Source of the DNA: Escherichia coli
Lineage (GTDB): Bacteria; Pseudomonadota; Gammaproteobacteria; Enterobacterales; Enterobacteriaceae
DNA: 64,000 nt
Reading direction: 5' to 3' (one strand)
Assembly (NCBI RefSeq): GCF_050320075.1
Contig: NZ_CP190018.1
Below are positions 1 through 46,299 of this stretch, piece by piece. The stretch's first letter is position 1; the number at the start of each line of letters is the position of its first letter. Below the pieces are notes generated by a model. The model saw only the letters and a program-made list of their open reading frames with translations. It was not told where the DNA came from and ran no database searches. Position numbers and translations under genes: made by a program.

Positions 1-1
1 C

Positions 2-388
2 AAATATTACTGCGATCGCGCAATGGCTAAAAAGTTTGTGCTGAACTTCAGGCCCGGCTATGCCGCCAATATCAACGATTACCTCCCGGAAAAACTGTCG
101 ACACGTCTGGCTGAGGAGTCTGTTTCCCTGTGGCTGTCTACCTGTATTGCCGGTGTGGTGAAGCCTTATGCCAACGGTGCTCACGCATGGGAAATGAGCG
201 TTGTCAGAGTGCGTCGAAGCTGGTGGAAAAAACATCGGGATGAGTTTTCTTTACTGGAAGGGGATGCGTTCAGGCAGTGGTGCATTGAACAGCGGCAAGA
301 GCCGGAGATGGCAAACGTGATTTTAGTCACCGATGACGAAAGTTGCGGGTATTCGGCTATGGAAGGATTGACTGGCAAGGTTGGTTGA
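2..388 (+). CDS. cas3: Cas3 C-terminal region (partial, 5' end outside window)
   Basis: Open frame runs from position 2 with no upstream stop and ends at TGA 386-388, directly upstream of cse1; position matches cas3 in type I-E operons. No motif-level confirmation possible on this fragment. Confidence 0.55.
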   Translation, partial: KYYCDRAMAKKFVLNFRPGYAANINDYLPEKLSTRLAEESVSLWLSTCIAGVVKPYANGAHAWEMSVVRVRRSWWKKHRDEFSLLEGDAFRQWCIEQRQEPEMANVILVTDDESCGYSAMEGLTGKVG

Positions 389-485
389 GATGCCTGCGAC
401 AGGGCTCTCTGAATAGTTGATACACCGAAAAGGATGGAATGATGGACAACCGACCAGGGATGGTCTTTTTTACGAGAGGATGCGT

Positions 486-2048
486 ATGAACTCGTTTTCA
501 CTTCTGACAACCCCGTGGTTGCCCGTTCGTTATAAAGACGGAACGACAGGCAAACTGGCGCCAGTCGATCTGGCGGATGAAAATGTTGTCGATATCGCTG
601 CGCCGCGGGCAGATCTCCAGGGGGCGGCATGGCAGTTTTTGCTGGGACTATTACAAACCAGCTTCGCGCCAAAAGATCAACGTCGTTGGGATGATATCTG
701 GGAAGACGGACTGGAAGCTGAAAAGCTACGGGAAGCATTGCTGTCATTAGACCATGCTTTCCAGTTCGGGCCAGATTCACCTTCATTTATGCAGGATTTT
801 GAGGCGCTCACGGGAGATAAAGTTCCGGTCGCTTCGCTACTGCCTGAGATTCCCGGCGTTCAAACAACAAAGTTTAATAAAGACCACTTTATCAAGCGTG
901 GTGTAACGGAACACCTGTGCCCACAGTGTTCTGCACTAGCCTTGTTCTCTCTACAGTTAAATGCGCCGTCAGGTGGCAAAGGCTATCGCACCGGCTTACG
1001 CGGCGGTGGGCCGATGACCACGCTGATTGAATTACAGGAATATCAGGGCAATCAACAAACTCCCTTGTGGCGCAAACTATGGCTCAACGTGATGCCGCAG
1101 GATGAAGCCGACTTACCGCTACCCAAAAAATTTGACGATCTGATTTTCCCCTGGCTAGGCCCGACGCGTACCAGCGAACTGGCCGGTGCGGTGGTAACCC
1201 ATGATCAGGTCAATAAACTCCAGGCGTACTGGGGAATGCCGCGGCGTATACGTATTGATTTTAATACCACGACAGTCGGCAACTGCGATATTTGCGACGA
1301 GCAGAACGACGCGCTCCTGAGCCTGATGACGACCAAAAATTATGGTGCCAATTATGCCATGTGGCAGCATCCCTTAACGCCTTACCGTGTACCACTTAAA
1401 GAGGGGGGCGAGTTTTACTCCGTTAAACCACAACCGGGCGGTTTAATCTGGCGCGACTGGTTAGGCCTTATCGAAACGGGTAAATCAGAAAACAATACGG
1501 AACTTCCCGCGCTGGTGGTGAAACTCTTTAATGCCAGCAGTCTGAAACAGGCAAAAGTGGGCCTATGGGGATTTGGTTATGATTTTGACAACATGAAAGC
1601 GCGCTGTTGGTACGAACACCATTTCCCGCTACTGCTCAATAAAAAAGAAGGCCAGATACCGAAGCTGCGGCTGGCTGCGCAAACGGCTTCACGGATTCTG
1701 AGTCTGTTACGGAGTGCATTGAAAGAAGCATGGTTCTCCGATCCAAAAGGTGCAAGGGGTGATTTCAGTTTTGTGGATATCGACTTCTGGAACAAAACTC
1801 AGCATCGCTTCCTGAGGTTAGTGCGCCAAATTGAAGAAGGTCAGGATGCGGATGAATTACTCGGCAAATGGCAAAAGGAAATTTGGTTATTCGCGCGTCA
1901 GGATTTTGACGAGCGTGTATTCACTAATCCTTATGAGCCCGTTGATTTGAAACGCGTCATGACCGCGCGCAAGAAATATTTTACAACATCGGCGGAGAAG
2001 CAAAGTGCTAAAGCCGCCAGGGAGAAAAAGCAGGAGGCTGCTGAATGA
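486..2048 (+). CDS. cse1: Cse1/CasA, Cascade large subunit (type I-E)
   Basis: 520 aa from ATG 486, preceded by GAGAGGA RBS. N-terminus MNSFSLLTTPWLPVRY and GYRTGLRGGGPMTT segment resemble Cse1; first gene of the Cascade operon. ORF-track start at 417 is judged an upstream extension. Confidence 0.85.
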   Translation: MNSFSLLTTPWLPVRYKDGTTGKLAPVDLADENVVDIAAPRADLQGAAWQFLLGLLQTSFAPKDQRRWDDIWEDGLEAEKLREALLSLDHAFQFGPDSPSFMQDFEALTGDKVPVASLLPEIPGVQTTKFNKDHFIKRGVTEHLCPQCSALALFSLQLNAPSGGKGYRTGLRGGGPMTTLIELQEYQGNQQTPLWRKLWLNVMPQDEADLPLPKKFDDLIFPWLGPTRTSELAGAVVTHDQVNKLQAYWGMPRRIRIDFNTTTVGNCDICDEQNDALLSLMTTKNYGANYAMWQHPLTPYRVPLKEGGEFYSVKPQPGGLIWRDWLGLIETGKSENNTELPALVVKLFNASSLKQAKVGLWGFGYDFDNMKARCWYEHHFPLLLNKKEGQIPKLRLAAQTASRILSLLRSALKEAWFSDPKGARGDFSFVDIDFWNKTQHRFLRLVRQIEEGQDADELLGKWQKEIWLFARQDFDERVFTNPYEPVDLKRVMTARKKYFTTSAEKQSAKAAREKKQEAAE

Positions 2049-2581
2049 GTATTGTAAAAGAGGAGCACAAAGCCACGCTGCGTAAATGGCACGAAGAGTT
2101 GCAGGAAAAACGCGGCAATCGTGCCAGTCTGCGGCGTAGCACAACGGTTAATGATGTTTGTCTGTCAGAAGGGTTTCGTTCTCTGCTGATGCAGACCCAC
2201 ACTTTGTGGAAAATTGAAGCACAAGAGTGGCGTTTTACCGCACTGGCGCTGGTCGCCGCAGTTAGCGCCAATGTTAAAGCTATTGATGAACGGCAGCCTT
2301 TTGCCGCGCAGCTGGCGGCGGTAATGTCGGAGGGGCGTTTTACTCGCCTGTCGGCAGTAAAAACGCCTGATGATTTACTGCGTCAGTTACGTCGCGCGGT
2401 CAAATTATTAAATGGTTCCGTCAATCTTATCTCTTTGGCAGAAGATATTTTCCGCTGGTGCCAGGAGAGCGACGACCTGCTCAATCATCACCGCCGCCAG
2501 CAGCGGCCAACAGAATTTATCCGTATCCGCTGGGCGCTGGAATATTACCAGGCTGGCGACGCCGATAACGAACAAAATTAA
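2045..2581 (+). CDS. cse2: Cse2/CasB, Cascade small subunit
   Basis: 178 aa, ATGA overlap with cse1 stop; size and position as expected for cse2. Confidence 0.8.
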   Translation: MSIVKEEHKATLRKWHEELQEKRGNRASLRRSTTVNDVCLSEGFRSLLMQTHTLWKIEAQEWRFTALALVAAVSANVKAIDERQPFAAQLAAVMSEGRFTRLSAVKTPDDLLRQLRRAVKLLNGSVNLISLAEDIFRWCQESDDLLNHHRRQQRPTEFIRIRWALEYYQAGDADNEQN

Positions 2582-2595
2582 TAAAGGACTATCTC

Positions 2596-3651
2596 ATGAC
2601 GACATTTATTCAGCTTCATTTGTTAACCGCTTACCCTGCTGCCAACCTTAACCGTGATGACACCGGTGCGCCAAAAACTGTGGTACTGGGTGGAGCAACG
2701 CGTCTGCGCGTTTCCTCACAAAGTCTGAAACGTGCGTGGCGCACTTCTGCACTTTTTGAACAGGCACTGGCGGGCCATATTGGTATTCGCAGTGGGCGTA
2801 TTGCGCGTGAGGCGGCAACTATCCTGATTGAGAAAGGCATCGAAGAGAAAAAAGCCATCGAATGGGCGGCAAAAATTGCGGATTATCTTGGGAAAGCTAA
2901 AAACGACAAAAAACCAAAAGATCCGCTCACTAACGCCGAAACTGAACAGCTAGTCCATATCAGCCCGGCAGAATTTGACGCCGTAAAAGCGCTGGCCCAT
3001 CAACTGGCCGAAGAAAAGCGCGCGCCAAAAGAGGAAGATCTCGCTTTGTTACGTAAAGATCGCATGGCGGTAGATATCGCTATGTTTGGTCGTATGCTGG
3101 CGAATAAACCCGAATTTAATGTTGAAGCCGCCTGCCAGGTCGCGCATGCATTTGGTGTCAGTGAAACGATTGTCGAAGATGATTTTTTCACCGCCGTTGA
3201 TGATTTGCGCCAGGCTTCTGAAGATGCCGGTGCCGGGCATCTTGGTGAAACCGGATTCGGTTCTGCGCTGTTCTACACCTATATCTGCATCGATAAAGAT
3301 CTGCTGGTCGAAAACCTCGGCGGTGACGAAGCGTTAGCTAATCAGACCTTGCGCGCCTTTACGGAAGCCGCACTTAAAGTCTCCCCAACCGGCAAACAGA
3401 ACAGCTTTGCCAGCCGTGCCTACGCCTCCTGGGCGCTGGCAGAAAAAGGCACTGAACAACCACGCTCTCTGGCGGCGGCTTTCTATGAACCCATTAATGG
3501 CACCCGGCAGTTAGATGTGGCGGTGCAGCGTATTACAACGCTTCGCGAAAATATGAATACGGTCTATGAACAGAAGACCGAATGCGCAAGCTTTGACGTG
3601 ATGAACAAACAGGGAAGCATGAAGGACGTGCTGGACTTTATCTGCGCGTAA
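2596..3651 (+). CDS. cas7: Cas7/CasC, Cascade backbone subunit
   Basis: 351 aa, third Cascade gene, RBS AAGGA upstream. Confidence 0.85.
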   Translation: MTTFIQLHLLTAYPAANLNRDDTGAPKTVVLGGATRLRVSSQSLKRAWRTSALFEQALAGHIGIRSGRIAREAATILIEKGIEEKKAIEWAAKIADYLGKAKNDKKPKDPLTNAETEQLVHISPAEFDAVKALAHQLAEEKRAPKEEDLALLRKDRMAVDIAMFGRMLANKPEFNVEAACQVAHAFGVSETIVEDDFFTAVDDLRQASEDAGAGHLGETGFGSALFYTYICIDKDLLVENLGGDEALANQTLRAFTEAALKVSPTGKQNSFASRAYASWALAEKGTEQPRSLAAAFYEPINGTRQLDVAVQRITTLRENMNTVYEQKTECASFDVMNKQGSMKDVLDFICA

Positions 3652-3661
3652 GGGGCGGCTA

Positions 3662-4408
3662 ATGAGCCAATATTTGATTTTTCAGCTTCATGGGCCAATG
3701 GCATCCTGGGGCGTCGATGCCCCCGGCGAAGTGCGTCATACCCATGAACTGCCTTCGCGCTCAGCATTGCTGGGGCTGCTGGCTGCCGGGGTAGGGATTC
3801 GGCGTGATGATACCGAACGATTAAACGCGTTTAACAGCCACTATTCACTGGTGGTTTGCGCCAGCCGTAACCCGCGCTGGGCACGGGATTATCACACGGT
3901 CCAGATGCCAAAAGAGGTGCGTAAAGCGCGTTATTTCAGCCGTCGCGAAGAGTTGAGCGCCCCTGATCTTCTGAGCGCGATTATCTCCCGGCGCGACTAC
4001 TACACCGATGCCTGGTGGATGGTGGCGGTGGCAACAACCCCCGATGCGCCTTACAGGCTTGAACAGTTGCAGGACGGTTTACGTCATCCGGTTTTTCCGC
4101 TTTATCTGGGGCGAAAAAGTCATCCGCTGGCGTTACCACTTGCGCCGTTACTGCTCGAAGGCAACGCGTCTGATGTCTTACGTAACGCATACCAACAGTA
4201 TCAGGATAGTTTCCGCGAACTGAAAGTCTCACTCCCGAAACTTCAGGATGAATGCTGGTGGGAAGGGGAACACGACGGCCTGGTCGCGAGCAAAATATTA
4301 CGTCGCCGGGATGTTCCTTTAAATCGTCAGCAGTGGCTGTTTGGGGAACGCACCATCAATCAGGGGCCGTGGCTCAGCAAGGAGGAACCATGTACCTCTC
4401 AAGAATAA
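3662..4408 (+). CDS. cas5: Cas5/CasD
   Basis: 248 aa; N-terminus MSQYLIFQLHGPMASWG resembles the CasD N-terminus (MRSYLILRLAGPMQAWG in K-12 as I recall). Confidence 0.85.
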   Translation: MSQYLIFQLHGPMASWGVDAPGEVRHTHELPSRSALLGLLAAGVGIRRDDTERLNAFNSHYSLVVCASRNPRWARDYHTVQMPKEVRKARYFSRREELSAPDLLSAIISRRDYYTDAWWMVAVATTPDAPYRLEQLQDGLRHPVFPLYLGRKSHPLALPLAPLLLEGNASDVLRNAYQQYQDSFRELKVSLPKLQDECWWEGEHDGLVASKILRRRDVPLNRQQWLFGERTINQGPWLSKEEPCTSQE

Positions 4409-5036
4409 CCTTACATACCGGCCAGCTTTCGCCTGCGCAGTTGCTGCATCTGGTGGATCGCGGTGAATATGTAATGCATCAGTGGCTGTGGGATCTTTTT
4501 CCTGGCGGCAAAGAAAGGCAATTTCTTTATCGTCGGGAAGAACTCCAGGGGGCGTTTCGCTTTTTTGTCCTGTCGCAGGAACGCCCGGCGGAAAGTGATA
4601 TTTTCACCATCGAATGCCGACCATTTGCGCCAGAGTTGCGTACCGGACAATCCCTTTGTTTCAACCTGCGGGCGAATCCAACAATTTGTAAAGCGGGCAA
4701 ACGCCACGACTTGCTGATGGAGGCGAAACGGCAGGTGAGGGGGCAGGTGGAAGGAAGTGATGTCTGGTTGCATCAACAACAGGCGGCGCTGGACTGGCTG
4801 GCAGCGCAGGGGGAAAGAAGCGGTTTTACACTACTGGATACCTCGGTCGATGCCTACCGACAACAGCAACTGCGGCGGGAAAACTCCCGGCAACTGATCC
4901 AGTTCAGTAGCGTGGATTATACGGGGATGCTTACGGTCACCGATCCTGGGTTATTTCTGCAACGTCTGAGCCAGGGGTATGGCAAAAGCCGCGCGTTCGG
5001 CTGTGGTCTGATGCTGATCAAACCCGGAGCAGAGGC

Positions 5037-5040
<4 letters not shown>
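4390..5040 (+). CDS. cas6e: Cas6e/CasE, crRNA endoribonuclease
   Basis: 216 aa from ATG 4390 (MYLSRITL..., cf. K-12 CasE MYLSKV...); GGAGGAACC RBS; overlaps cas5 3' end by 19 nt. ORF-track start 4252 rejected as extension. Confidence 0.85.
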
Positions 5041-6250
<1,210 letters not shown>

Positions 6251-6346
6251 GTTATCTGTTCTTTAAAAATAAGGAAATGTTTTAATTTAGTTGGTAGATT
6301 GTTGATGCGGAATAAATTTGTTTAAAAACAGTTATGTATGCTTAGT
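6251..6346 (+). promoter_or_regulatory. CRISPR leader (AT-rich, between cas2 stop and first repeat)
   Basis: 96-bp AT-rich segment immediately upstream of repeat 1 on the sense side; leader position next to cas2 as in E. coli CRISPR-I. Confidence 0.7.
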
Positions 6347-6985
6347 GTGTTCCCCGCGTCAGCGGGGATAAACCGACAATCAGATCACGATCGATGCCTC
6401 GCGTGAGGTGTTCCCCGCGTCAGCGGGGATAAACCGATTTTCGCAGCGGGTAACCGCGCCCGGCGATCGTGTTCCCCGCGTCAGCGGGGATAAACCGTTT
6501 ATGTGGAGTATCAGTGCCTGGGTGGAAAGGTGTTCCCCGCGTCAGCGGGGATAAACCGTGGGGCTGAGCATGGCTAAACAACCGAGGCGCGTGTTCCCCG
6601 CGTCAGCGGGGATAAACCGGTCAACTGGCACCACAGGATGATGGCGGCGAAGTGTTCCCCGCGCCAGCGGGGATAAACCGCAGGTCGACCGACTGGAGGC
6701 GGAGATTGTCGGGTGTTCCCCGCGCCAGCGGGGATAAACCGTGTTGTTTTTCTGCCGGATTAACGCGGTGCGAGTGTTCCCCGCGCCAGCGGGGATAAAC
6801 CGTTGTCGGGCTTGTTCGGCGCGGGTTGTTAACTGTGTTCCCCGCGCCAGCGGGGATAAACCGCCAGCGAAGGACTTGCTCGTGTGGTTAAAGCCGTGTT
6901 CCCCGCGTCAGCGGGGATAAACCGGACGCACTGGATGCGATGATGGACATCACTTGGAGTTCCCCGCCCCTGCGGTAGAACTCCC
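6347..6985 (+). CRISPR. Type I-E CRISPR array: 10 full 29-bp repeats, 10 spacers of 32 bp, plus a degenerate terminal repeat
   Basis: Repeat GTGTTCCCCGCG(T/C)CAGCGGGGATAAACCG at 6347, 6408, 6469, 6530, 6591, 6652, 6713, 6774, 6835, 6896 (period 61 bp); terminal degenerate repeat GAGTTCCCCGCCCCTGCGGTAGAACTCCC at 6957-6985. Sense strand is + (hairpin then AUAAACCG 5' handle). Confidence 0.97.
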
Positions 6986-14369: not shown

Positions 14370-15731
<1,362 letters not shown>

Positions 15732-15870
15732 AACGTGAGGAAATACCTGGATTTTTCCTGGTTATTTTGCCGCAGGTCAGCGTATCGTGAACATCTTTTC
15801 CAGTGTTCAGTATGGTGCCTTGCACGGTAATTATGTCACTGGTTATTAACCAATTTTTCCTGGGGGATAA

Positions 15871-17010
15871 ATGAGCGCGGGAAGCCCAAAATTCACCGTT
15901 CGCCGCATTGCGGCTTTGTCACTGGTTTCGCTATGGCTGGCAGGCTGTTCTGACACTTCAAATCCACCGGCACCGGTCAGCTCCGTTAATGGCAATGCGC
16001 CTGCAAATACCAATTCTGGTATGTTGATTACGCCGCCGCCGAAAATGGGAACGACGTCTACAGCGCAGCAACCGCAAATTCAGCCGGTACAGCAGCCACA
16101 AATTCAGGCTACTCAACAACCGCAAATCCAGCCAGTACAGCCAGTAGCTCAGCAGCCGGTACAGATGGAAAACGGACGCATCGTCTACAACCGTCAGTAT
16201 GGGAACATTCCGAAAGGCAGTTATAGCGGCAGTACCTATACCGTGAAAAAAGGCGACACACTTTTCTATATCGCCTGGATTACTGGCAACGATTTCCGTG
16301 ACCTTGCTCAGCGCAACAATATTCAGGCACCATACGCGCTGAACGTCGGTCAGACCTTACAGGTGGGTAATGCTTCCGGTACGCCAATCACTGGCGGAAA
16401 TGCCATTACCCAGGCCGATGCAGCAGAGCAAGGAGTTGTGATCAAGCCTGCACAAAATTCCACCGTTGCTGTTGCTTCGCAACCGACAATTACGTATTCT
16501 GAGTCTTCGGGTGAACAGAGTGCTAACAAAATGTTGCCGAACAACAAGCCAACTGCGACCACGGTCACAGCGCCTGTAACGGTACCAACAGCAAGCACAA
16601 CCGAGCCGACTGTCAGCAGTACATCAACCAGTACGCCTATCTCCACCTGGCGCTGGCCGACTGAGGGCAAAGTGATCGAAACCTTTGGCGCTTCTGAGGG
16701 GGGCAACAAGGGGATTGATATCGCGGGCAGCAAAGGACAGGCAATTATCGCGACCGCAGATGGCCGCGTTGTTTATGCCGGTAACGCGCTGCGCGGCTAC
16801 GGTAATCTGATTATCATCAAACATAATGATGATTACCTGAGTGCCTACGCCCATAACGACACAATGCTGGTCCGGGAACAACAAGAAGTGAAGGCGGGGC
16901 AAAAAATAGCAACCATGGGTAGCACCGGAACCAGTTCAACACGCTTGCATTTTGAAATTCGTTACAAGGGGAAATCCGTAAACCCGCTGCGTTATTTGCC
17001 GCAGCGATAA
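15871..17010 (+). CDS. nlpD: Murein hydrolase activator lipoprotein NlpD (LysM + M23 peptidase domain)
   Basis: 379 aa, lipobox LAGC, Q/P-rich linker, LysM and degenerate M23 domain. Confidence 0.95.
16066..16160 (+). repeat. In-frame imperfect 24-bp tandem repeat inside nlpD (encodes QQPQIQPV-like units)
   Basis: Three consecutive 24-bp units starting 16066, 16090, 16114 plus a partial unit; read directly from DNA and translation. Confidence 0.6.
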
Positions 17011-17072
17011 ATCGGCGGAACCAGGCTTTTGCTTGAATGTTCCGTCAAGGGATCACGGGTAGGAGCCACCTT
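16500..17072 (+). promoter_or_regulatory. rpoS main promoter and long 5' UTR embedded in 3' part of nlpD (approximate)
   Basis: Established knowledge for E. coli: rpoS is transcribed from a promoter inside nlpD giving a ~570-nt leader targeted by DsrA/RprA/ArcZ. Coordinates are approximate; not mapped motif by motif. Confidence 0.5.
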
Positions 17073-18065
17073 ATGAGTCAGAATACGCTGAAAGTTCATG
17101 ATTTAAATGAAGATGCGGAATTTGATGAGAACGGAGTTGAGGTTTTTGACGAAAAGGCCTTAGTAGAAGAGGAACCCAGTGATAACGATTTGGCCGAAGA
17201 GGAACTGTTATCGCAGGGAGCCACACAGCGTGTGTTGGACGCGACTCAGCTTTACCTTGGTGAGATTGGTTATTCACCACTGTTAACGGCCGAAGAAGAA
17301 GTTTATTTTGCGCGTCGCGCACTGCGTGGAGATGTTGCCTCCCGCCGCCGGATGATCGAGAGTAACTTGCGTCTGGTGGTAAAAATTGCCCGCCGTTATG
17401 GCAATCGTGGTCTGGCGTTGCTGGACCTGATCGAAGAGGGCAACCTGGGGCTGATCCGCGCGGTAGAGAAGTTTGACCCGGAACGTGGTTTCCGCTTCTC
17501 AACATACGCAACCTGGTGGATTCGCCAGACGATCGAACGGGCGATTATGAACCAAACCCGTACTATTCGTTTGCCGATTCACATCGTAAAGGAGCTGAAC
17601 GTTTACCTGCGAACCGCACGCGAGTTGTCCCATAAACTGGACCACGAACCAAGTGCGGAAGAGATCGCAGAGCAACTGGATAAGCCAGTTGATGACGTCA
17701 GCCGTATGCTTCGTCTTAACGAGCGCATTACCTCGGTAGACACCCCGCTGGGTGGTGATTCCGAAAAAGCGTTGCTGGACATCCTGGCCGATGAAAAAGA
17801 GAACGGTCCGGAAGATACCACGCAAGATGACGATATGAAGCAGAGCATCGTCAAATGGCTGTTCGAGCTGAACGCCAAACAGCGTGAAGTACTGGCACGT
17901 CGATTCGGTTTGCTGGGGTACGAAGCGGCAACACTGGAAGATGTAGGTCGTGAAATTGGCCTCACCCGTGAACGTGTTCGCCAGATTCAGGTTGAAGGCC
18001 TGCGCCGTTTGCGCGAAATCCTGCAAACGCAGGGGCTGAATATCGAAGCGCTGTTCCGCGAGTAA
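17073..18065 (+). CDS. rpoS: RNA polymerase sigma factor RpoS (sigma-38), intact
   Basis: 330 aa from ATG 17073, [25 protein letters not shown]...; codon 33 is GAG (Glu), no amber. Confidence 0.97.
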
Positions 18066-18083
18066 GTAAGCATCTGTCAGAAA

Positions 18084-18116
18084 GGCCAGTCTCAAGCGAG
18101 GCTGGCCTTTTTTCTT
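18084..18116 (+). terminator. Rho-independent terminator downstream of rpoS
   Basis: 10-bp stem GGCCAGTCTC/GAGGCTGGCC with loop AAGC, followed by TTTTTT. Confidence 0.75.
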
Positions 18117-18185
18117 TTGTTTGGGAAGCATGTGTTTTTGTGGGCTGGATAAGCCGCGATAGCGTCGCATCCGGCAATTTGCACC

Positions 18186-18593
18186 CTATGTGTTCATCAT
18201 CTTGCGCACCAACTGCATAAACAGCTCCTGCTCTTCTGCACTCAAACGCCCCAAAAATTCCTCATCCACGCTGTCACCAATGGGGATCGCCGCAGCAAGT
18301 ACCTTTTCTCCTTCGGCAGTCAGCCAGACAAAGCGTCGCCGCTTGTCAGCGGCGTCATGTTCACGTCTGACTAAGCCACGATTTTCCATTCTTGCCAACA
18401 TTTCTGCCAGCGTTGCTTTGGTGCTGACTGCTGCTTCTATCAGTGCCACCTGTTCGATACCAGGCTTATCAGCAATGGCGCGCATCACCGCGTACTGTGG
18501 TTTGGTGAGGTCAGGTAACTCGTGCTGCCAGCGAGCCGTGTGCTGCTGAAAAAGCTGTCGTAACTGATGGAACGCTTTATTTCGTAACGCCAT
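18186..18593 (-). CDS. hosA: MarR/SlyA-family transcriptional regulator (HosA-like)
   Basis: 135 aa from ATG 18593 (GGAG RBS 5 nt upstream); winged-helix MarR pattern; divergent from the decarboxylase genes. Symbol from recollection of the rpoS-mutS islet in pathogenic E. coli. Confidence 0.75.
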   Translation of the reverse strand: MALRNKAFHQLRQLFQQHTARWQHELPDLTKPQYAVMRAIADKPGIEQVALIEAAVSTKATLAEMLARMENRGLVRREHDAADKRRRFVWLTAEGEKVLAAAIPIGDSVDEEFLGRLSAEEQELFMQLVRKMMNT

Positions 18594-18739
18594 GTAAACT
18601 CCGGGCAAACTATCTGCCGCTATCATAGCGGTTTTTCAGTGACGAAGAAGATGTTGTTACTTTTCAGTGCTTGCCGCGATGAAAACAGAGGCGTATTTTA
18701 ATAATAACGTTCGTATACGAACAATTAAGAGAATAAACA

Positions 18740-19333
18740 ATGAGACTGATCGTCGGGATGACAGGGGCCACCGGAGCGCCTCTTGGTGTGGCATTACTGC
18801 AAGCGCTGCGGGAGATGCCGAATGTCGAGACTCATCTGGTGATGTCGAAGTGGGCGAAAACCACCATTGAACTGGAAACGCCTTACAACGCCCGCGATGT
18901 TGCTGCCCTCGCAGACTTCTGCCATAACCCGGCGGATCAGGCCGCAACCATCTCCTCAGGTTCCTTTCGTACCGACGGCATGATCGTTATTCCGTGCAGT
19001 ATGAAAACGCTCGCCGGTATCCGTGCCGGTTACGCCGATGGCCTGGTAGGGCGCGCGGCGGACGTCGTGCTCAAAGAAGGCCGCAAACTAGTGCTGGTGC
19101 CGCGTGAAATGCCGCTTAGCACCATCCATCTCGAAAATATGCTCGCACTTTCACGCATGGGCGTGGCGATGGTGCCGCCGATGCCTGCCTTTTATAACCA
19201 TCCCGAAACGGTAGATGACATTGTCCACCACGTGGTAGCCCGCGTGCTGGATCAATTTGGCCTCGAACATCCTCACGCCAGGCGCTGGCAAGGATTGCCG
19301 CAGGCCCGGAATTTTTCTCAGGAGAATGAATAA
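18740..19333 (+). CDS. ecdB: UbiX-like flavin prenyltransferase (decarboxylase subunit B, Pad1-like)
   Basis: 197 aa, MRLIVGMTGATGAPLG flavoprotein N-terminus typical of UbiX/Pad1. Confidence 0.9.
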   Translation: MRLIVGMTGATGAPLGVALLQALREMPNVETHLVMSKWAKTTIELETPYNARDVAALADFCHNPADQAATISSGSFRTDGMIVIPCSMKTLAGIRAGYADGLVGRAADVVLKEGRKLVLVPREMPLSTIHLENMLALSRMGVAMVPPMPAFYNHPETVDDIVHHVVARVLDQFGLEHPHARRWQGLPQARNFSQENE

Positions 19334-20760
19334 TGGCATTTGATGATTTACGCAGCTTTTTACAGGCGCTTGATGACCACGGCCAGTTACTGAAAATCAG
19401 CGAAGAGGTGAACGCGGAACCGGATCTGGCAGCCGCTGCCAACGCCACCGGACGTATCGGCGATGTTGCACCGGCGCTGTGGTTTGACAATATTCGCGGC
19501 TTTATCGATGCCCGCGTGGCAATGAACACCATCGGTTCCTGGCAGAACCACGCGATTTCCCTCGGCCTGCCGCCAAACACCCCGGTTAAAAAACAGATTG
19601 ATGAGTTTATCCGCCGCTGGGATAACTTCCCCATTGCCCCGGAGCGCCGCGCCAATCCAGCCTGGGCGCAGAACACCGTCGATGGCGACGAGATCAACCT
19701 GTTCGATATTCTGCCTCTGTTTCGTTTAAACGACGGTGATGGCGGTTTCTATCTCGACAAAGCGTGCGTGGTTTCCCGCGATCCGCTTGATCCGGATAAC
19801 TTCGGCAAGCAGAACGTCGGCATCTACCGTATGGAAGTGAAGGGTAAGCGTAAGCTCGGTCTGCAACCGGTGCCGATGCACGATATCGCCCTGCATCTGC
19901 ATAAAGCGGAAGAACGCGGTGAAGATCTGCCGATTGCCATCACACTCGGTAACGATCCGATCATCACCCTGATGGGGGCCACGCCGCTGAAATATGATCA
20001 GTCCGAGTACGAAATGGCAGGCGCGCTGCGTGAAAGCCCGTACCCGATCGCCACCGCCCCGCTGACTGGTTTTGATGTGCCGTGGGGTTCAGAAGTGATC
20101 CTCGAAGGGGTCATCGAAAGCCGTAAACGCGAAATCGAAGGGCCGTTTGGTGAGTTTACCGGGCACTACTCCGGCGGGCGTAACATGACCGTGGTGCGTA
20201 TCGATAAAGTCTCTTATCGCAGCAAACCCATTTTTGAATCGCTCTATCTCGGGATGCCGTGGACGGAAATCGACTACCTGATGGGGCCAGCCACCTGCGT
20301 GCCGCTGTATCAGCAACTGAAAGCCGAGTTCCCGGAAGTGCAGGCGGTAAATGCCATGTACACCCACGGCCTGCTGGCGATTATCTCCACCAAAAAACGC
20401 TACGGTGGCTTTGCCCGCGCGGTGGGCCTGCGTGCGATGACCACGCCACACGGTCTGGGCTACGTGAAGATGGTGATTATGGTCGATGAAGACGTTGATC
20501 CGTTCAACCTGCCGCAGGTGATGTGGGCGCTCTCTTCGAAAGTGAACCCGGCAGGGGATTTGGTGCAGTTGCCGAATATGTCCGTGCTGGAACTCGACCC
20601 CGGCTCAAGCCCGGCCGGTATCACCGACAAGCTGATTATCGACGCCACCACGCCTGTCGCCCCGGACAACCGTGGTCACTACAGCCAGCCGGTGGTGGAT
20701 TTACCGGAAACCAAAGCCTGGGCTGAAAAACTGACCGCTATGCTGGCCGCACGTAAATAA
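19333..20760 (+). CDS. ecdC: UbiD-family (prFMN-dependent) aromatic acid decarboxylase subunit C
   Basis: 475 aa, UbiD-family length and motifs; start overlaps ecdB stop. Confidence 0.9.
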   Translation: MAFDDLRSFLQALDDHGQLLKISEEVNAEPDLAAAANATGRIGDVAPALWFDNIRGFIDARVAMNTIGSWQNHAISLGLPPNTPVKKQIDEFIRRWDNFPIAPERRANPAWAQNTVDGDEINLFDILPLFRLNDGDGGFYLDKACVVSRDPLDPDNFGKQNVGIYRMEVKGKRKLGLQPVPMHDIALHLHKAEERGEDLPIAITLGNDPIITLMGATPLKYDQSEYEMAGALRESPYPIATAPLTGFDVPWGSEVILEGVIESRKREIEGPFGEFTGHYSGGRNMTVVRIDKVSYRSKPIFESLYLGMPWTEIDYLMGPATCVPLYQQLKAEFPEVQAVNAMYTHGLLAIISTKKRYGGFARAVGLRAMTTPHGLGYVKMVIMVDEDVDPFNLPQVMWALSSKVNPAGDLVQLPNMSVLELDPGSSPAGITDKLIIDATTPVAPDNRGHYSQPVVDLPETKAWAEKLTAMLAARK

Positions 20761-20770
20761 GGAGAACAAG

Positions 20771-21007
20771 ATGATTTGTCCACGTTGTGCTGATGAACAG
20801 ATTGAAGTGATGGCGAAATCGCCGGTAAAAGATGTCTGGACGGTCTACCAGTGCCAGCATTGCCTCTATACCTGGCGCGATACCGAACCGCTACGCCGCA
20901 CCAGCCGCGAACATTATCCCGAAGCGTTCCGCATGACACAGAAAGATATTGATGACGCGCCGATGGTGCCGAGCATCCCGCCGCTGCTGGCGGAAGGTAA
21001 GCGCTAA
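20771..21007 (+). CDS. ecdD: Decarboxylase small subunit D (zinc-ribbon, CxxC...CxxC)
   Basis: 78 aa, MICPRCADEQ...YQCQHCLYTW, typical small subunit of BsdBCD/EcdBCD-type decarboxylases. Confidence 0.85.
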   Translation: MICPRCADEQIEVMAKSPVKDVWTVYQCQHCLYTWRDTEPLRRTSREHYPEAFRMTQKDIDDAPMVPSIPPLLAEGKR

Positions 21008-21010
21008 ATA

Positions 21011-21041
21011 AAAGGTCCGATGCCCATCGGACCTTTTTATT
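21011..21041. terminator. Bidirectional terminator between convergent ecdD and ygbN
   Basis: Stem GGTCCGATG/CATCGGACC flanked by an A-run and TTTTT. Confidence 0.7.
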
Positions 21042-21045
21042 AAGG

Positions 21046-27857: not shown

Positions 27858-30419
27858 TTACACCAGACTCTTCAAGCGATAAATCCACTCCAGCGCCTGA
27901 CGCGGAGTCAGTGAATCCGGGTCGAGATTTTCCAGTGCTTCGACCGCAGGCGACGTTTCTTCTGGCACTGACAGCAAAGACATTTGCGTACCATCCACTT
28001 GCGTAGCGGCGGCGTTCGGCGAAATGCTTTCCAACTCACGCAGTTTTTGCCGTGCGCGCTTAATAACCTCTTTTGGCACGCCGGCCAGAGCTGCAACCGC
28101 CAGGCCGTAGCTTTTGCTCGCCGCGCCATCCTGCACGCTGTGCATAAAGGCAATGGTGTCGCCGTGCTCCAGCGCATCGAGATGCACGTTGGCGACGCCT
28201 TCCATTTTCTCCGGTAACTGGGTCAGCTCGAAATAGTGGGTGGCAAACAGTGTCAACGCTTTAATCTTATTCGCCAGATTTTCCGCGCACGCCCACGCCA
28301 GCGACAGACCATCGTAAGTGGACGTCCCGCGCCCAATCTCATCCATCAGCACCAGACTGTACTCGGTGGCGTTATGTAAAATATTGGCGGTTTCGGTCAT
28401 TTCCACCATAAAGGTTGAACGCCCGGATGCCAGATCATCCGCTGCCCCTACGCGGGTAAAGATGCGATCGATAGGTCCAATCTCGACTTTTTGTGCCGGT
28501 ACATAGCTGCCGATGTAGGCCATCAGCGCAATCAGTGCGGTCTGGCGCATATAGGTACTTTTACCGCCCATATTCGGACCGGTAATGATCAACATGCGAC
28601 GCTGCGGCGACAGGTTCAGCGGGTTGGCGATAAACGGCTCATTCAGCACCTGTTCAACCACCGGATGGCGGCCTTCGGTGATGCGAATACCCGGTTTATC
28701 AATAAAGGTCGGGCAGGTGTAGTTCAGCGTATAGGCCCGTTCTGCCAGGTTCACCAGCACGTCGAGTTCCGCCAGCGCGCTCGCGCTCTGTTGCAACGCT
28801 TCCAGATGCGGCAACAGCAGGTCGAACAACTCTTCATAAAGCTGTTTTTCCAGTGCCAGTGCTTTGCCTTTTGAAGTGAGAACTTTGTCTTCGTACTCTT
28901 TTAGCTCTGGAATAATGTAGCGTTCGGCGTTTTTCAGCGTCTGGCGGCGCATGTAGTTAATCGGTGCCAGATGGCTTTGTCCACGGCTGATCTGAATGTA
29001 ATAACCATGCACCGCGTTAAATCCGACTTTCAGCGTGTCCAGGCCGGTACGTTCACGCTCGCGGACTTCCAGACGCTCCAGATAATCGGTCGCGCCGTCA
29101 GCCAGCGCGCGCCACTCATCCAGCTCTTCGTTATAGCCCGATGCGATAACACCACCGTCGCGCACCAGTACCGGCGGTGTGTCGATAATGGCCCGCTCCA
29201 GCAGATCGCGCAGTTCGGCAAACTCACCCATCTTCTCACGCAGCGCCTGTACCGGAGCGCTATCGACATTTTCTAACTGCGCACGCAGCTCCGGCAGTTG
29301 CTGGAAAGCGTGACGCATACGGGCCAGATCGCGTGGGCGAGCAGTTCGTAAAGCCAGACGTGCCAGAATACGTTCCAGGTCGCCGACCTGACGCAGCACC
29401 GGCTGTAGCTCGGCGGTGAAATCCTGCAATGCGCCAATAGTTTGCTGGCGCTCAAGCAACACGCGGGTATCGCGCACTGGCATATGCAGCCAGCGTTTCA
29501 GCATACGACTACCCATTGGCGTTACAGTGCAGTCGAGCACTGAAGCCAGCGTGTTTTCCGCACCGCCCGCCAGGTTCTGAGTAATTTCCAGGTTACGACG
29601 TGTCGCGGCATCCATAATGATGCTGTCCTGCTCACGTTCCATGGTGATAGAACGAATATGCGGCAGGGTCGTACGTTGGGTATCTTTCGCATACTGCAAC
29701 AGACAACCGGCAGCACAAAGTCCGCGCGGCGCGTTCTCGACGCCAAAACCGACCAGATCGCGGGTGCCAAATTGCAGATTCAACTGCTGGCGCGCGGTGT
29801 CGATTTCAAACTCCCACAGCGGGCGACGGCGCAGGCCGCGACGGCCTTCAATTAACGACATTTCAGCAAAATCTTCTGCATACAGCAGTTCCGCCGGATT
29901 AGTGCGTTGCAGTTCTGCCGCCATCGTTTCGCGGTCAGCCGGTTCGCTCAGGCGAAAACGACCGGAACTGATATCCAGCGTCGCGTAGCCGAAACCTTTG
30001 CTGTCCTGCCAGATAGCCGCCAGCAGGTTGTCCTGACGCTCCTGCAACAGGGCTTCATCGCTGATGGTGCCTGGCGTAACGATACGCACAACTTTGCGCT
30101 CAACCGGACCTTTGCTGGTCGCCGGATCGCCAATTTGTTCGCAGATGGCAACGGACTCGCCCTGATTCACCAGTTTGGCGAGGTAGTTTTCCACCGCATG
30201 GTAGGGGATCCCCGCCATCGGGATCGGCTCTCCCGCGGAAGCACCGCGTTTGGTCAGTGAAATATCCAGCAGCTGCGAGGCGCGTTTCGCGTCGTCATAA
30301 AACAGTTCGTAAAAGTCACCCATCCGATAGAACAGCAGGATCTCGGGATGCTGGGCTTTCAGCTTGAGATACTGCTGCATCATGGGCGTATGGGCATCGA
30401 AATTTTCTATTGCACTCAT
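27858..30419 (-). CDS. mutS: DNA mismatch repair protein MutS
   Basis: 853 aa, Walker [10 protein letters not shown]; E. coli MutS. Confidence 0.98.
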
Positions 30420-30665
30420 GGGGTTATGTCCGGTTCCCTGATATTAAATGGGGTGTGATGGTTTTTATTTTCGTTGTAATCACATAAGGCGCACATGATA
30501 CCGGAGTTAATCATTTCAGGGGAAGAAGCGAACGGCGAGTTCTTGATGCTGGTTCCGGGAAAGATGCTGTTTTGCAGCTTTTGCGTGATGCTTATGAAGC
30601 AAGTACGCAAAATTGTATCGGTTGGCTAACCCTTCTTCTTTAGAGTCATAGTGCCCTTTAAGATT

Positions 30666-30688
30666 AAGTTGTAATATAAATGCATCTT
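30666..30688 (+). promoter_or_regulatory. Candidate NsrR operator upstream of ygbA
   Basis: AAGTTGTAATA-T-AAATGCATCTT: right half matches the NsrR half-site AAATGCATCTT as I recall it, left half 7/11; ygbA is a known NsrR target. Confidence 0.4.
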
Positions 30689-30705
30689 AATGAGATGGAG
30701 GCAGC

Positions 30706-31050
30706 ATGTCCGGCAAGCGTATCTCTCGTGAAAAACTGACGATTAAAAAAATGATCGATCTTTATCAAGCGAAATGCCCGCAGGCGTCAGCGGAGCCGGA
30801 GCATTATGAGACGTTGTTTACTTACGCGCAAAAGCGGCTGGATAAATGTGTGTTCGGCGAAGAGAAACCAGCCTGTAAGCAGTGTCCGGTGCACTGTTAC
30901 CAGCCTGCAAAGCGTGAAGAGATGAAACAGATTATGCGTTGGGCTGGGCCGCGAATGCTGTGGCGTCATCCGATCTTAACCGTGCGTCATCTCATCGATG
31001 ACAAGCGTCCGGTGCCGGAGTTGCCAGAAAAATATCGTCCAAAGAAATAA
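30706..31050 (+). CDS. ygbA: NsrR-regulated protein YgbA
   Basis: 114 aa, MSGKRISREKLTIKKMIDLYQAKCP...; E. coli YgbA. Confidence 0.9.
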   Translation: MSGKRISREKLTIKKMIDLYQAKCPQASAEPEHYETLFTYAQKRLDKCVFGEEKPACKQCPVHCYQPAKREEMKQIMRWAGPRMLWRHPILTVRHLIDDKRPVPELPEKYRPKK

Positions 31051-31088
31051 ATCTGCCGGAGAGCCATACTCTCCGGCAAATAAGGCGC

Positions 31089-31517
31089 TTACGCTTTGGT
31101 GGCAATCAGGATGGCTGATGCTTTGATCAATGCAATAACGCGCGAGCCAGTGGTGAGTTTCATTTCATCCTGACTTTCATTTGTTACCACTGCCACAATT
31201 TCAAAACCCGCATCCGTTTTGATATGGACAGTGGCGTTCACTGCGCCTTCGGTGATTGTCGACACGCTGCCAGCAAACTGGTTGCGAGCAGAGAATTTCA
31301 GTCCACAGTCTTCCGTTGCCAGCGTTACCCACGGGGCTTTAATCAGGGCAATCGCTTCTTTCCCTTTCGCCAGACCCAGCGCTTGCTGGCTGCTGTGAGT
31401 CACAATTGCCACCAGCTTTGCACCACCTGCCAGCGTCAGTTCTACTTCATCATTCACAGCGCCCATTGCTACTGCGCTAACTGTTCCGGTTAATTGATTT
31501 CTTGCTGAAACTGCCAT
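31089..31517 (-). CDS. Tandem Mop/TOBE-domain molybdate-binding protein
   Basis: 142 aa from ATG 31517 (AGGAGG RBS 4 nt upstream). Two internal repeats of about 70 aa (SARNQLTGTVS...AIALIKAPWVTLA and SARNQFAGSVS...VIALIKASAILIA) typical of Mop/TOBE domains. Confidence 0.8.
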   Translation of the reverse strand: MAVSARNQLTGTVSAVAMGAVNDEVELTLAGGAKLVAIVTHSSQQALGLAKGKEAIALIKAPWVTLATEDCGLKFSARNQFAGSVSTITEGAVNATVHIKTDAGFEIVAVVTNESQDEMKLTTGSRVIALIKASAILIATKA

Positions 31518-31561
31518 ACTGCCTCCTTTCATTGAACGTTGATCGAGTATAACCACATCTG

Positions 31562-33640
31562 TTAAATCAATGCCGATTTATCAATTCCCAGTCGCTTCAT
31601 CCGTGACAGCAGGGTCGTGCGTTTCAGCCCCAGACGTTGCGCAGCGCCTTTAGGCCCGGCAACCACGCCGTTGGTTTCTTTCAGCACGCGAACAATCAAC
31701 TGATATTCATCTTCGCCCTCCTGGGCGACAACCGTTGCGGCAGGCGGCGTTTCAGGCTCCGGTAAAGCAATATCTGGCAGTGACAGCTGCAGCACGTTGC
31801 CGCGTGTTAGCAATACCGCGCGCTCAATGACGTTTTCCAGTTCGCGTACGTTACCCGGCCACTCCATGTTGCTCAAGGTGCGCAGCGTCTCGGCAGGAAT
31901 GCTGTCGATATTGCGCCCGAGACGACGGGCAATTTTGAAGGTAAAGGCTTTCGCCAGCAGCGGAATATCTTCCGGACGCTCGCGTAGTGGCGGCAGGTGG
32001 ATCGGGAATACATTCAGGCGGTAATAGAGATCGCTACGGAACTCACGGTCGGCGACCATTTTTTTCAGATCGCGGTTAGTCGCGGCAATTAAACGTACGT
32101 CCGTCTGAATGATTTTGTTGCTGCCGAGGCGTTCAAACTCCTGTTCCTGTAATACACGCAGCAACTTCGGCTGTAACTCCAGTGGCATATCGCCCACTTC
32201 GTCGAGGAACAGGGAGCTTTTATCCGCCAGTTCAAAACGACCAATGCGCTGGGCGCTGGCACCGGTAAAAGCCCCACGCTCATGACCAAACAGATCGCTC
32301 TCCAGCAATCCGGCAGGCATTGCCGCGCAGTTCATTTTTACCATGCGGCGATTATTACGCCCACTGAGATTATGGATCGCGCGGGCAATCAGCTCTTTAC
32401 CTGTACCAGTTTCACCGAGAATCAGCACGGTACTGTCGCTTTGCGCCACCATTTCAACTTGTTTAAGTACGCTGTACATGGCTTCGCTGCGGCCAATAAT
32501 CTCGCCAAATTCACTATCAACATTGTTGAGCTGCTCGGTCAGGGCGAGGTTTTCATCAACCAGCCGTTCTTTCAGACGATGGATTTCCTGATAGGCGAGG
32601 GCGTTATCGACAGCGATTGCCACACGTTCGGTAATCTGGCGCAGTAAATTCAGATTGGTAGTGGTAAACACTTTCTCTTCGCATTGCGCCAGTTTCAGCA
32701 CGCCCAGCATGGTGTCGCCAGACATCAGCGGTAACAGGCACAAGGTTTGAATCTGGTTGCCCCAGGTGTCGAACAACATGCGTTCATAGGGGGCTAAATC
32801 GTCCCGCTCGTGGAGATTAATCAGCAGCATCTCTTTGCTTTTGAACACGCGTTCGGTGAGGGTTCCGGCTTCATCGACTTCGCTCTGTTCGTGGGCGGGA
32901 TGCTGTTTATCAAGATAGTGAGTGGAGTAGATGTTGAGTTTGTTTTTACGGTGGCTGCGTAAGACGATGCTGATATCGTCAATGTCGAAGTAGTAATGGA
33001 TTTCTTTGGCGACTTCGCTGACCAGTTCGTCCATATCCAGGCGGGAAAGCACCGCGTTGGTAATGGCAACCAGGATGCGGAAGTTATCGCGCTCCCGGCA
33101 TAACAACTCATAGTCGACATTATTGACGACGCGGCTCTGGATTTGTTCGGTGACGACAGAAACGATCTGCGTAAATGTTTGCAGACGATTGAACTCTTTT
33201 TCGCTCCAGGGGCGATCGTCATAACGAATAAATTCACAGCCACCAAAAATATGCCCTTCCGCCGCCAGTGGCATCAGGCAATAGTGACCAAATTTGGGGT
33301 ATAGCCCACCTGCGGCCAGCTGCGGCCAGGTTTCACAAAATTCTTCGTAACTGCAATGCAGCGTATCAGGGCGCGACAAAATGCTGCGTACCGGACCGTG
33401 TGCCAGAACAGTTTCGTCTTCATATTTAATGGGGGTGTCTTTTTCACGCGATGCGTAATAAGACGCACGTTGAGTCTGCGCTTGCCACAACACAATAGCC
33501 GCGTTGTCGGCGAGCGCAGAACGCTTTACCAGTTGCGAAAGAGCCTCACACAGCGAGGCCAGATCGGGCTGCTGCAATAGTGTCCGAGTGATGTCGAACA
33601 ACCCTTGTTGTCCGAGATCACTCATCGGTGTATATGACAT
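31562..33640 (-). CDS. fhlA: Formate hydrogenlyase transcriptional activator FhlA (sigma54-dependent)
   Basis: 692 aa from MSYTPMSDLGQQ; GAF domains, AAA+ sigma54-interaction motif GETGTGKE and GAFTGA. Confidence 0.96.
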   Translation of the reverse strand: MSYTPMSDLGQQGLFDITRTLLQQPDLASLCEALSQLVKRSALADNAAIVLWQAQTQRASYYASREKDTPIKYEDETVLAHGPVRSILSRPDTLHCSYEEFCETWPQLAAGGLYPKFGHYCLMPLAAEGHIFGGCEFIRYDDRPWSEKEFNRLQTFTQIVSVVTEQIQSRVVNNVDYELLCRERDNFRILVAITNAVLSRLDMDELVSEVAKEIHYYFDIDDISIVLRSHRKNKLNIYSTHYLDKQHPAHEQSEVDEAGTLTERVFKSKEMLLINLHERDDLAPYERMLFDTWGNQIQTLCLLPLMSGDTMLGVLKLAQCEEKVFTTTNLNLLRQITERVAIAVDNALAYQEIHRLKERLVDENLALTEQLNNVDSEFGEIIGRSEAMYSVLKQVEMVAQSDSTVLILGETGTGKELIARAIHNLSGRNNRRMVKMNCAAMPAGLLESDLFGHERGAFTGASAQRIGRFELADKSSLFLDEVGDMPLELQPKLLRVLQEQEFERLGSNKIIQTDVRLIAATNRDLKKMVADREFRSDLYYRLNVFPIHLPPLRERPEDIPLLAKAFTFKIARRLGRNIDSIPAETLRTLSNMEWPGNVRELENVIERAVLLTRGNVLQLSLPDIALPEPETPPAATVVAQEGEDEYQLIVRVLKETNGVVAGPKGAAQRLGLKRTTLLSRMKRLGIDKSALI

Positions 33641-45571: not shown

Positions 45572-45883
45572 ATGCACATCATTTCGAAAGCGCCATTTGA
45601 AGAGTGTGCGCGCAAATATCCTAACGACGCTCTGGCTCTACACTCATTGTATCGGGTTATTAAGGAAACGGATTTTTCTACACCAGAAGAAATGCGAACG
45701 GCGTTTCCTAACCTCGACAATTTTAAATATCGCAACAAATGGTACGTTCTGGATGTCGGCGGGAACAATCTTAGGGTTATTGCCTACATAAACTTTGTTA
45801 ATAAGCGGTTCTTTGTGAAGCACATAACGAATCACGCAGAGTATGACAAACTGACACGTTACTACAGAGAGAACAAAGAATGA
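45572..45883 (+). CDS. HigB-like (RelE/ParE superfamily) toxin
   Basis: 103 aa basic protein with NLDNFKYRNKWYVLDVGGNNLRVIAY segment resembling HigB-family toxins; toxin gene precedes antitoxin as in higBA. Confidence 0.8.
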   Translation: MHIISKAPFEECARKYPNDALALHSLYRVIKETDFSTPEEMRTAFPNLDNFKYRNKWYVLDVGGNNLRVIAYINFVNKRFFVKHITNHAEYDKLTRYYRENKE

Positions 45884-46299
45884 CTGCTAATGCTGCACGC
45901 GCTGTTAAAGCAACAAGAGAACTGGTCAATGCAGTCCCCTTTCTGGGAGGCAGTGACTCAGAAGATGATTATCGTGAAGCACTGGAACTGGTCGAATATT
46001 TGATTGAAGAAGATGACACCAATCCACTTATCGACTTTCTGGCGAGCCGCATTGCAGAATATGAAAACAACAACGAAAAGTTTGCAGAGTTCGACAAAGC
46101 CGTTGCAGCAATGCCGGTTGGCGTGGCCTTACTTCGTACGCTGATTGATCAACATAATTTGACCTATGCGGATTTGAAGAACGAAATCGGCTCTAAATCT
46201 CTGGTCAGTCAGATTTTGTCTGGGCAACGATCCCTGACGATATCCCATATTAAGGCACTTTCAGCCCGATTTGGCGTTAAGCCGGAATGGTTTCTTTGA
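45880..46299 (+). CDS. HigA-like HTH (XRE-family) antitoxin
   Basis: 139 aa, ATGA overlap with toxin stop; C-terminal HTH ...IGSKSLVSQILSGQRSLTISHIKALSARFGVKPEWF typical of HigA. Confidence 0.8.
   Translation: MTANAARAVKATRELVNAVPFLGGSDSEDDYREALELVEYLIEEDDTNPLIDFLASRIAEYENNNEKFAEFDKAVAAMPVGVALLRTLIDQHNLTYADLKNEIGSKSLVSQILSGQRSLTISHIKALSARFGVKPEWFL

Follow-up and report, generated by a model that had tools for sequence, protein, structure and literature searches.

The 64,000-nt stretch of DNA analysed here (the window) carries rpoS as it ordinarily occurs on the chromosome of Escherichia coli outside K-12, with the species-typical 33E allele, a reading to which we assign a probability of about 97%. 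GAG is the ancestral, species-typical form of codon 33 in this gene, and the 'polymorphism' described for that codon reflects the laboratory history of K-12. Nothing in the sequence contradicts the identification as rpoS. Both the gene and its common allele are already known, and neither is new. The features on which this reading is built are collected in Table 1, together with those of the neighbouring mutS-rpoS region.

Table 1. Features located in the window around rpoS and in the mutS-rpoS neighbourhood
Feature	Position	Strand	Basis or content
nlpD, upstream gene in the nlpD-rpoS operon	15871..17010	+	379-aa ORF, K-12 nlpD length
PrpoS core promoter, inferred (-35 TTGCTT 16472-16477, 17-nt spacer, -10 TATTCT 16495-16500)	16472..16500	+	published start and sequence
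rpoS 5' untranslated leader, 567 nt, from PrpoS inside nlpD	16506..17072	+	published start, homology
Hfq recruitment motifs ((AAN)4 AACAACAAGAAG 16877-16888, A6 16901-16906)	16877..16906	+	motif location; both intact
Upstream strand of the inhibitory hairpin, pairing hub for DsrA/RprA/ArcZ	16946..16977	+	predicted fold; K-12-identical
Shine-Dalgarno AGGAG, 7 nt 5' of the rpoS ATG	17061..17065	+	motif position; same in K-12
rpoS CDS, sigma-S of RNA polymerase	17073..18065	+	recomputed ORF, HMMs, Pfam, RefSeq
Codon 33 = GAG (Glu), common natural allele	17169..17171	+	sequence; probe counts
rpoS intrinsic terminator, 15-pair stem then T run	18079..18112	+	terminator prediction
Polymorphic segment 3' of rpoS	18113-21045		MarR/slyA-like and decarboxylase genes
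MarR/slyA-like regulator	18186-18593	-	
Hydroxyarylic acid decarboxylase subunits B, C, D (kpdBCD)	18740-21007	+	
TOBE-domain gene, absent from K-12	31089-31517	-	accounts for extra fhlA-mutS length

Identity and control signals of rpoS

The sigma-S subunit encoded by rpoS is an alternative member of the sigma-70 family that steers RNA polymerase to the promoters of stationary phase and of the general stress response; its regulon covers katE (catalase HPII), glycogen and acid resistance. Read directly and recomputed, the rpoS ORF of the window spans 993 nt, that is 330 codons plus the stop, from the ATG at 17073-17075 to the TAA at 18063-18065, and recomputing it revealed no internal stop codon in 17073-18065 on the plus strand. 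Its product scores 604.6 bits against the NCBIfam equivalog NF004207 (cutoff 394, E = 5e-182), aligning over residues 1-329 with the 329-position model, and 480.7 bits against TIGR02394 (cutoff 378.7); the models for RpoD, RpoH and other sigma factors each stayed under their own cutoff for this protein. Four Pfam sigma-70 regions, PF00140 (residues 56-88), PF04542 (94-163), PF04539 (174-248) and PF04545 (262-315), all exceed their gathering scores and correspond to regions 1.2, 2, 3 and 4, which together form the architecture of a group 2 sigma-70 protein. Residues K173 and I128 are kept. The identity claimed by an earlier, sequence-only reading of this DNA, namely a full-length rpoS of 330 aa, is thus upheld by the equivalog score, the recomputed ORF and RefSeq alike, and the coordinates, length and codon that it gave (17073-18065; GAG at 17169-17171) proved exact.

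Public genomes place this gene in familiar company. The whole 64,000-nt window matches E. coli YZLc1-3 (NZ_CP123240.1, 1212605-1276604) with 0 mismatches, and RefSeq names the corresponding product in that 100%-identical genome rpoS (WP_000081550.1, 17073..18065). At least 1,000 public contigs encode the exact protein, which bears the record title 'MULTISPECIES RpoS [Enterobacteriaceae]', and the nucleotide identity of rpoS is 100% in all 30 of 30 genomes among the matches listed. The predicted product is the consensus enterobacterial RpoS. Gene order (truD-surE-pcm-nlpD-rpoS) is that of K-12, so that the conserved nlpD-rpoS operon context is retained, with PrpoS and the greater part of the rpoS leader located in nlpD. 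For nlpD itself, the K-12-length ORF of 379 aa opens at 15871, whereas the RefSeq call in the identical YZLc1-3 starts at 15916.

The position of the rpoS start codon merits a comment since the longest mechanical ORF in this frame begins 36 nt upstream of 17073. Initiation at that ATG, at 17037, would yield a protein of 342 aa with a 12-residue N-terminal extension. We consider the probability of such a start negligible: a Shine-Dalgarno sequence is absent before 17037 while AGGAG lies 7 nt before 17073, the RpoS HMM alignment begins at residue 1 of the 330-aa form, and the latter is the form used by RefSeq, by the K-12 annotation and in PDB constructs. The 342-aa ORF was consequently rejected, and 17073 is taken as the real rpoS start because the AGGAG at 17061-17065, the alignment of the NCBIfam model over residues 1-329 and the RefSeq and K-12 annotations all point to it. 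Long ORFs antisense to rpoS (17499..18170, 223 aa, and others) were likewise dismissed as shadow ORFs opposite strongly coding sequence.

Transcription from PrpoS has been reported to start 567 nt 5' of the rpoS ATG (PMC10948607), a distance that by homology maps the start to ~16506 in the window. A scan of 15700-18800 for consensus sigma-70 promoters returned 0 sites, compared with 2.4 expected by chance; PrpoS was placed through the published distance because it is too weak a consensus match for such a scan. The inferred -35 element reads TTGCTT in the window and TTGCGT in K-12, owing to a single nucleotide difference at 16476 (T vs G) that is silent in nlpD (Ala202). A 61-mer with T at 16476 is found exactly in 325 of ~5,419 complete genomes and its K-12 form in 3,434. 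Both hexamers match the -35 consensus TTGACA at the same 3/6 positions and, being equal in this respect, would be expected to differ little in effect. It is highly unlikely that the T at 16476, or the mosaic mutS-rpoS neighbourhood that accompanies it (see below), would reset basal rpoS transcription. If it did, a lineage-specific change in the PrpoS -35 element would be one source of the differences in RpoS level reported between natural E. coli strains.

Over the 773 nt 5' of the ATG, the window and K-12 differ by eight substitutions, all of them silent third-position changes in nlpD. Four are within the leader, at -348, -294, -183 and -162; the other four, among them the one in the inferred -35 element, fall in the promoter or 5' of it. 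K-12 has the very same final 161 nt before the ATG, the same Shine-Dalgarno sequence and the same terminator. Nucleotide differences at 16890 and 16911 flank the Hfq motifs but leave (AAN)4 and A6, which act in Hfq recruitment (PMC3458560), intact. In the minimum-free-energy fold of 16930-17095 (dG -51.3 kcal/mol, z -1.98), the Shine-Dalgarno sequence and the ATG are taken up in a helix with the strand at 16946-16977, and the predicted duplex of this strand with DsrA amounts to -31.8 kcal/mol. DsrA, RprA and ArcZ are reported to open the inhibitory stem-loop of the leader (PMC10948607). Both features that mark an rpoS leader are found here: the sites for Hfq, and a strand further 5' that can sequester the ribosome-binding site by pairing and is also the hub for the sRNAs.

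Promoter, leader motifs, Shine-Dalgarno sequence and terminator, as located by homology and prediction, are all present. The gene would be transcribed mainly from PrpoS within nlpD into an mRNA with a 567-nt leader, which would fold so that the ribosome-binding site is hidden. Opening of this fold by DsrA, RprA and ArcZ, sRNAs that depend on Hfq, would allow translation, after which the RpoS protein would be governed by RssB/ClpXP proteolysis.

Searches with RNA families contributed little to this picture. Rfam at gathering thresholds gave no matches over the entire 64-kb window, and a permissive scan of 15700-18800 produced two sub-threshold matches only, to naRNA4 and to a ctRNA model, neither of which concerns rpoS. 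The ctRNA match, which sits on the hairpin of the rpoS terminator, was discarded as sub-threshold. The naRNA4 match, at 18143-18209 on the minus strand (29 bits, gathering threshold 59.5), is best read as a REP-type repeat at the point where homology to K-12 breaks.

Codon 33 across E. coli genomes

Comparison with the reference allele of K-12 MG1655 (b2741, NP_417221.1), which likewise has 993 nt, encodes 330 aa and follows nlpD, showed proteins identical at 329/330 positions, the sole difference being Q33E: MG1655 has CAG (Gln) at this codon, where direct reading of the window confirms GAG (Glu). Another eight differences are silent (from K-12 to the window, C264T, T270C, T357G, T462C, T549C, G564A, T573C and G819A) and form exactly the set tabulated for ECOR50 (PMC3074542). 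Among the genomes whose rpoS is 100% identical, some belong to ST617 (PMC6392093), a correspondence that applies to the 993-nt gene only. The ECOR50 silent sites and the ST617 genomes hint at one rpoS allele shared across backgrounds. The 33E RpoS of natural isolates is identical to that of the window at the protein level.

Codon 33 of rpoS is known in several classes, 33E in natural strains and 33Q, 33Am and 33Y in K-12 stocks, and with GAG at 17169-17171 the window gene belongs to the first of these. To obtain a census of the alleles, 5,426 complete E. coli genomes were searched with three 61-nt probes (17140-17200), identical except for the base that opens codon 33. The GAG (Glu) probe was found exactly in 4,818 of 5,414 complete genomes (89%), those listed being natural and clinical isolates. 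By comparison, the CAG (Gln) probe was exact in 173/5,414 (3.2%), with MG1655 and laboratory derivatives among the matches listed, and the TAG (amber) probe in 121/5,414 (2.2%), where the matches listed include W3110, J53, HMS174, S17-1 and BLR(DE3). Roughly 300 other genomes have substitutions elsewhere within the 61-nt probe and hence are left unclassified by the three codon-33 probes. All recognisable CAG and TAG strains among the matches listed (40 per probe) are K-12 stocks or laboratory derivatives and, extending this to the remaining matches, both codons appear to be confined to such strains. The amber strains among the matches listed that can be recognised are K-12 derivatives or carriers of K-12 DNA, e.g., BLR(DE3).

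The amber allele rpoS(Am), carried by K-12 W3110, J53 and related stocks, represents the same gene with the same flanks; within the 61-nt probe, only the initial base of codon 33 sets it apart. In these stocks the amber TAG cuts short normal translation, whereas the window rpoS has no such stop.

These counts agree with earlier surveys. GAG was described as the common natural allele at this codon and was present in every natural strain examined (PMC2700278), EHEC and probiotic isolates all carried it (PMC1852560), and nearly all ECOR strains sequenced show Q33E relative to K-12, several of them with Q33E as the only amino-acid change (PMC3074542). The sequence-only reading had regarded codon 33 as polymorphic among lineages; this does not hold, GAG being species-wide (4,818/5,414) and CAG and TAG seemingly restricted to K-12. 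Codon 33 is consequently best judged against the species consensus and not against the K-12 reference, with MG1655 (CAG) and W3110 (TAG) as outliers, and finding GAG says no more about the lineage or phenotype of a strain than that it is not a K-12 laboratory stock.

Codon 33 would be phenotypically informative if 33E were functionally distinct from K-12 33Q in activity, stability or translation. We find this improbable. The Q33E form was reported to have 'similar functional activity' (PMC3074542). Residue 33 lies in a non-conserved acidic N-terminal segment, with 17 D/E among the first 55 residues, ahead of the first conserved region, which begins at residue 56. Moreover, since 33E is ancestral and near-universal, any departure would be that of K-12 33Q and not of the window allele. 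K-12 RpoS, at 329/330 identity, is the protein found in the solved holoenzyme structures 5IPL, 6KJ6 and 6OMF; in the weaker RpoS structure matches 7f0r and 7vf9, listed without their source organisms, the alignment does not begin before residue 52 and so leaves out residue 33.

One complete genome among the matches of the codon-33 probe differs in another way. In E. coli O177:H21 (NZ_CP016546.1, 3584449-3584510), the 61-nt probe aligns over 62 nt, a sign of one extra nucleotide in rpoS codons ~23-43 and therefore of either a frameshifted rpoS or an assembly error. That gene exemplifies the loss-of-function class of rpoS, to which the window gene does not belong.

Intact rpoS and the general stress response

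With an intact consensus rpoS and intact cis signals, the strain is very likely able to make active sigma-S, as far as the gene and its surroundings allow one to predict. ECOR strains without detectable RpoS all carry nonsense, frameshift or deletion mutations in rpoS (PMC3074542), and it is because every RpoS-null ECOR strain had such a lesion that RpoS production is considered very likely here. Lesions in rpoS are reported in 20-30% of natural isolates (PMC3074542). The strain is genotypically rpoS+ and stands outside this fraction, which makes for a useful annotation and little more.

From the full-length frame, the sequence-only reading had concluded to a functional general stress response. 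The part of this claim that concerns the gene stands, as the ORF is intact and consensus and the RpoS-null ECOR strains were all lesioned, but the part that concerns the response is overstated given that strains sharing this protein include some with very little RpoS as well as the one with the most. RpoS is very low in ECOR2 and ECOR22 and reaches its highest level in ECOR69, although the three have one and the same protein, in which Q33E is the only change (PMC3074542). Furthermore, the regulators of RpoS level rssB, hfq, dsrA, rprA, arcZ and spoT map outside the 64-kb window. Since the same protein spans such different RpoS levels and these regulators lie elsewhere, phenotype is not readable from the rpoS ORF; the amount of RpoS, hence the strength of the stress response, cannot be inferred from the window. 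Subpopulations mutated in rpoS also arise and are selected readily (PMC2700278), and a consensus genome sequence cannot reveal them.

An intact rpoS could consequently coexist with low or attenuated RpoS, be it through rssB, spoT/ppGpp, hfq, the sRNAs or the T variant in the -35 element of PrpoS. The contrast between ECOR2 or ECOR22 and ECOR69, obtained with one protein sequence (PMC3074542), argues for this, and so does the relative scarcity of the variant 61-mer around 16476, exact in just 325 genomes when the K-12 form is exact in 3,434. We nevertheless hold an RpoS-low strain to be rather unlikely. Every motif of the leader is intact, and the T at 16476 is present in hundreds of natural and clinical genomes; as both -35 variants share 3/6 positions with the consensus, a large effect of this substitution would not be expected. 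In a panel of VTEC strains, low catalase was seen solely in the strain with a premature stop codon (PMC2700278). An rpoS+ strain that is able to make active sigma-S remains the preferred reading.

The mutS-rpoS neighbourhood and other loci

Homology to K-12 stops right after the rpoS terminator, at ~18113, and the gap between rpoS and ygbN, 93 nt in K-12, reaches 2,980 nt in the window. The intervening segment is the well-described mutS-rpoS (o454-nlpD) polymorphic region in its 'pattern IV' of Ewers et al. 2014 (PMC4209514), in which a slyA-like MarR gene and kpdBCD lie between rpoS and ygbN (o454) and ygbN is kept, as in the window. At least 80% of this segment is covered in 2,380 of 5,426 genomes.

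On the far side of the region the arrangement is of another type. The fhlA-mutS primer pair F1/R1 of Ewers et al. yields ~1,674 bp in silico (30372-32045), a long form that was reported exclusively in pattern III (B2) strains (PMC4209514). The window departs from pattern IV in combining the fhlA-mutS amplicon length of pattern III with pattern IV beside rpoS. The occurrence of a pattern III-type fhlA-mutS length alongside pattern IV suggests a mosaic, recombinant mutS-rpoS neighbourhood.

Two further loci of the window were recorded. A type I-E CRISPR-Cas locus occupies positions 1-6924 and comprises the 3' end of cas3, casA-E, cas1e and cas2e, followed by an array at 6347-6924 of 10 repeats and 9 spacers, with two repeat variants (C/T at repeat position 13). 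None of the Rfam CRISPR families reached threshold in the window. The hycI-ascB gap measures ~972 nt in the window vs 158 nt in K-12, and houses genes for a HigB-family toxin and a helix-turn-helix antitoxin (45572-46299) that K-12 does not have.
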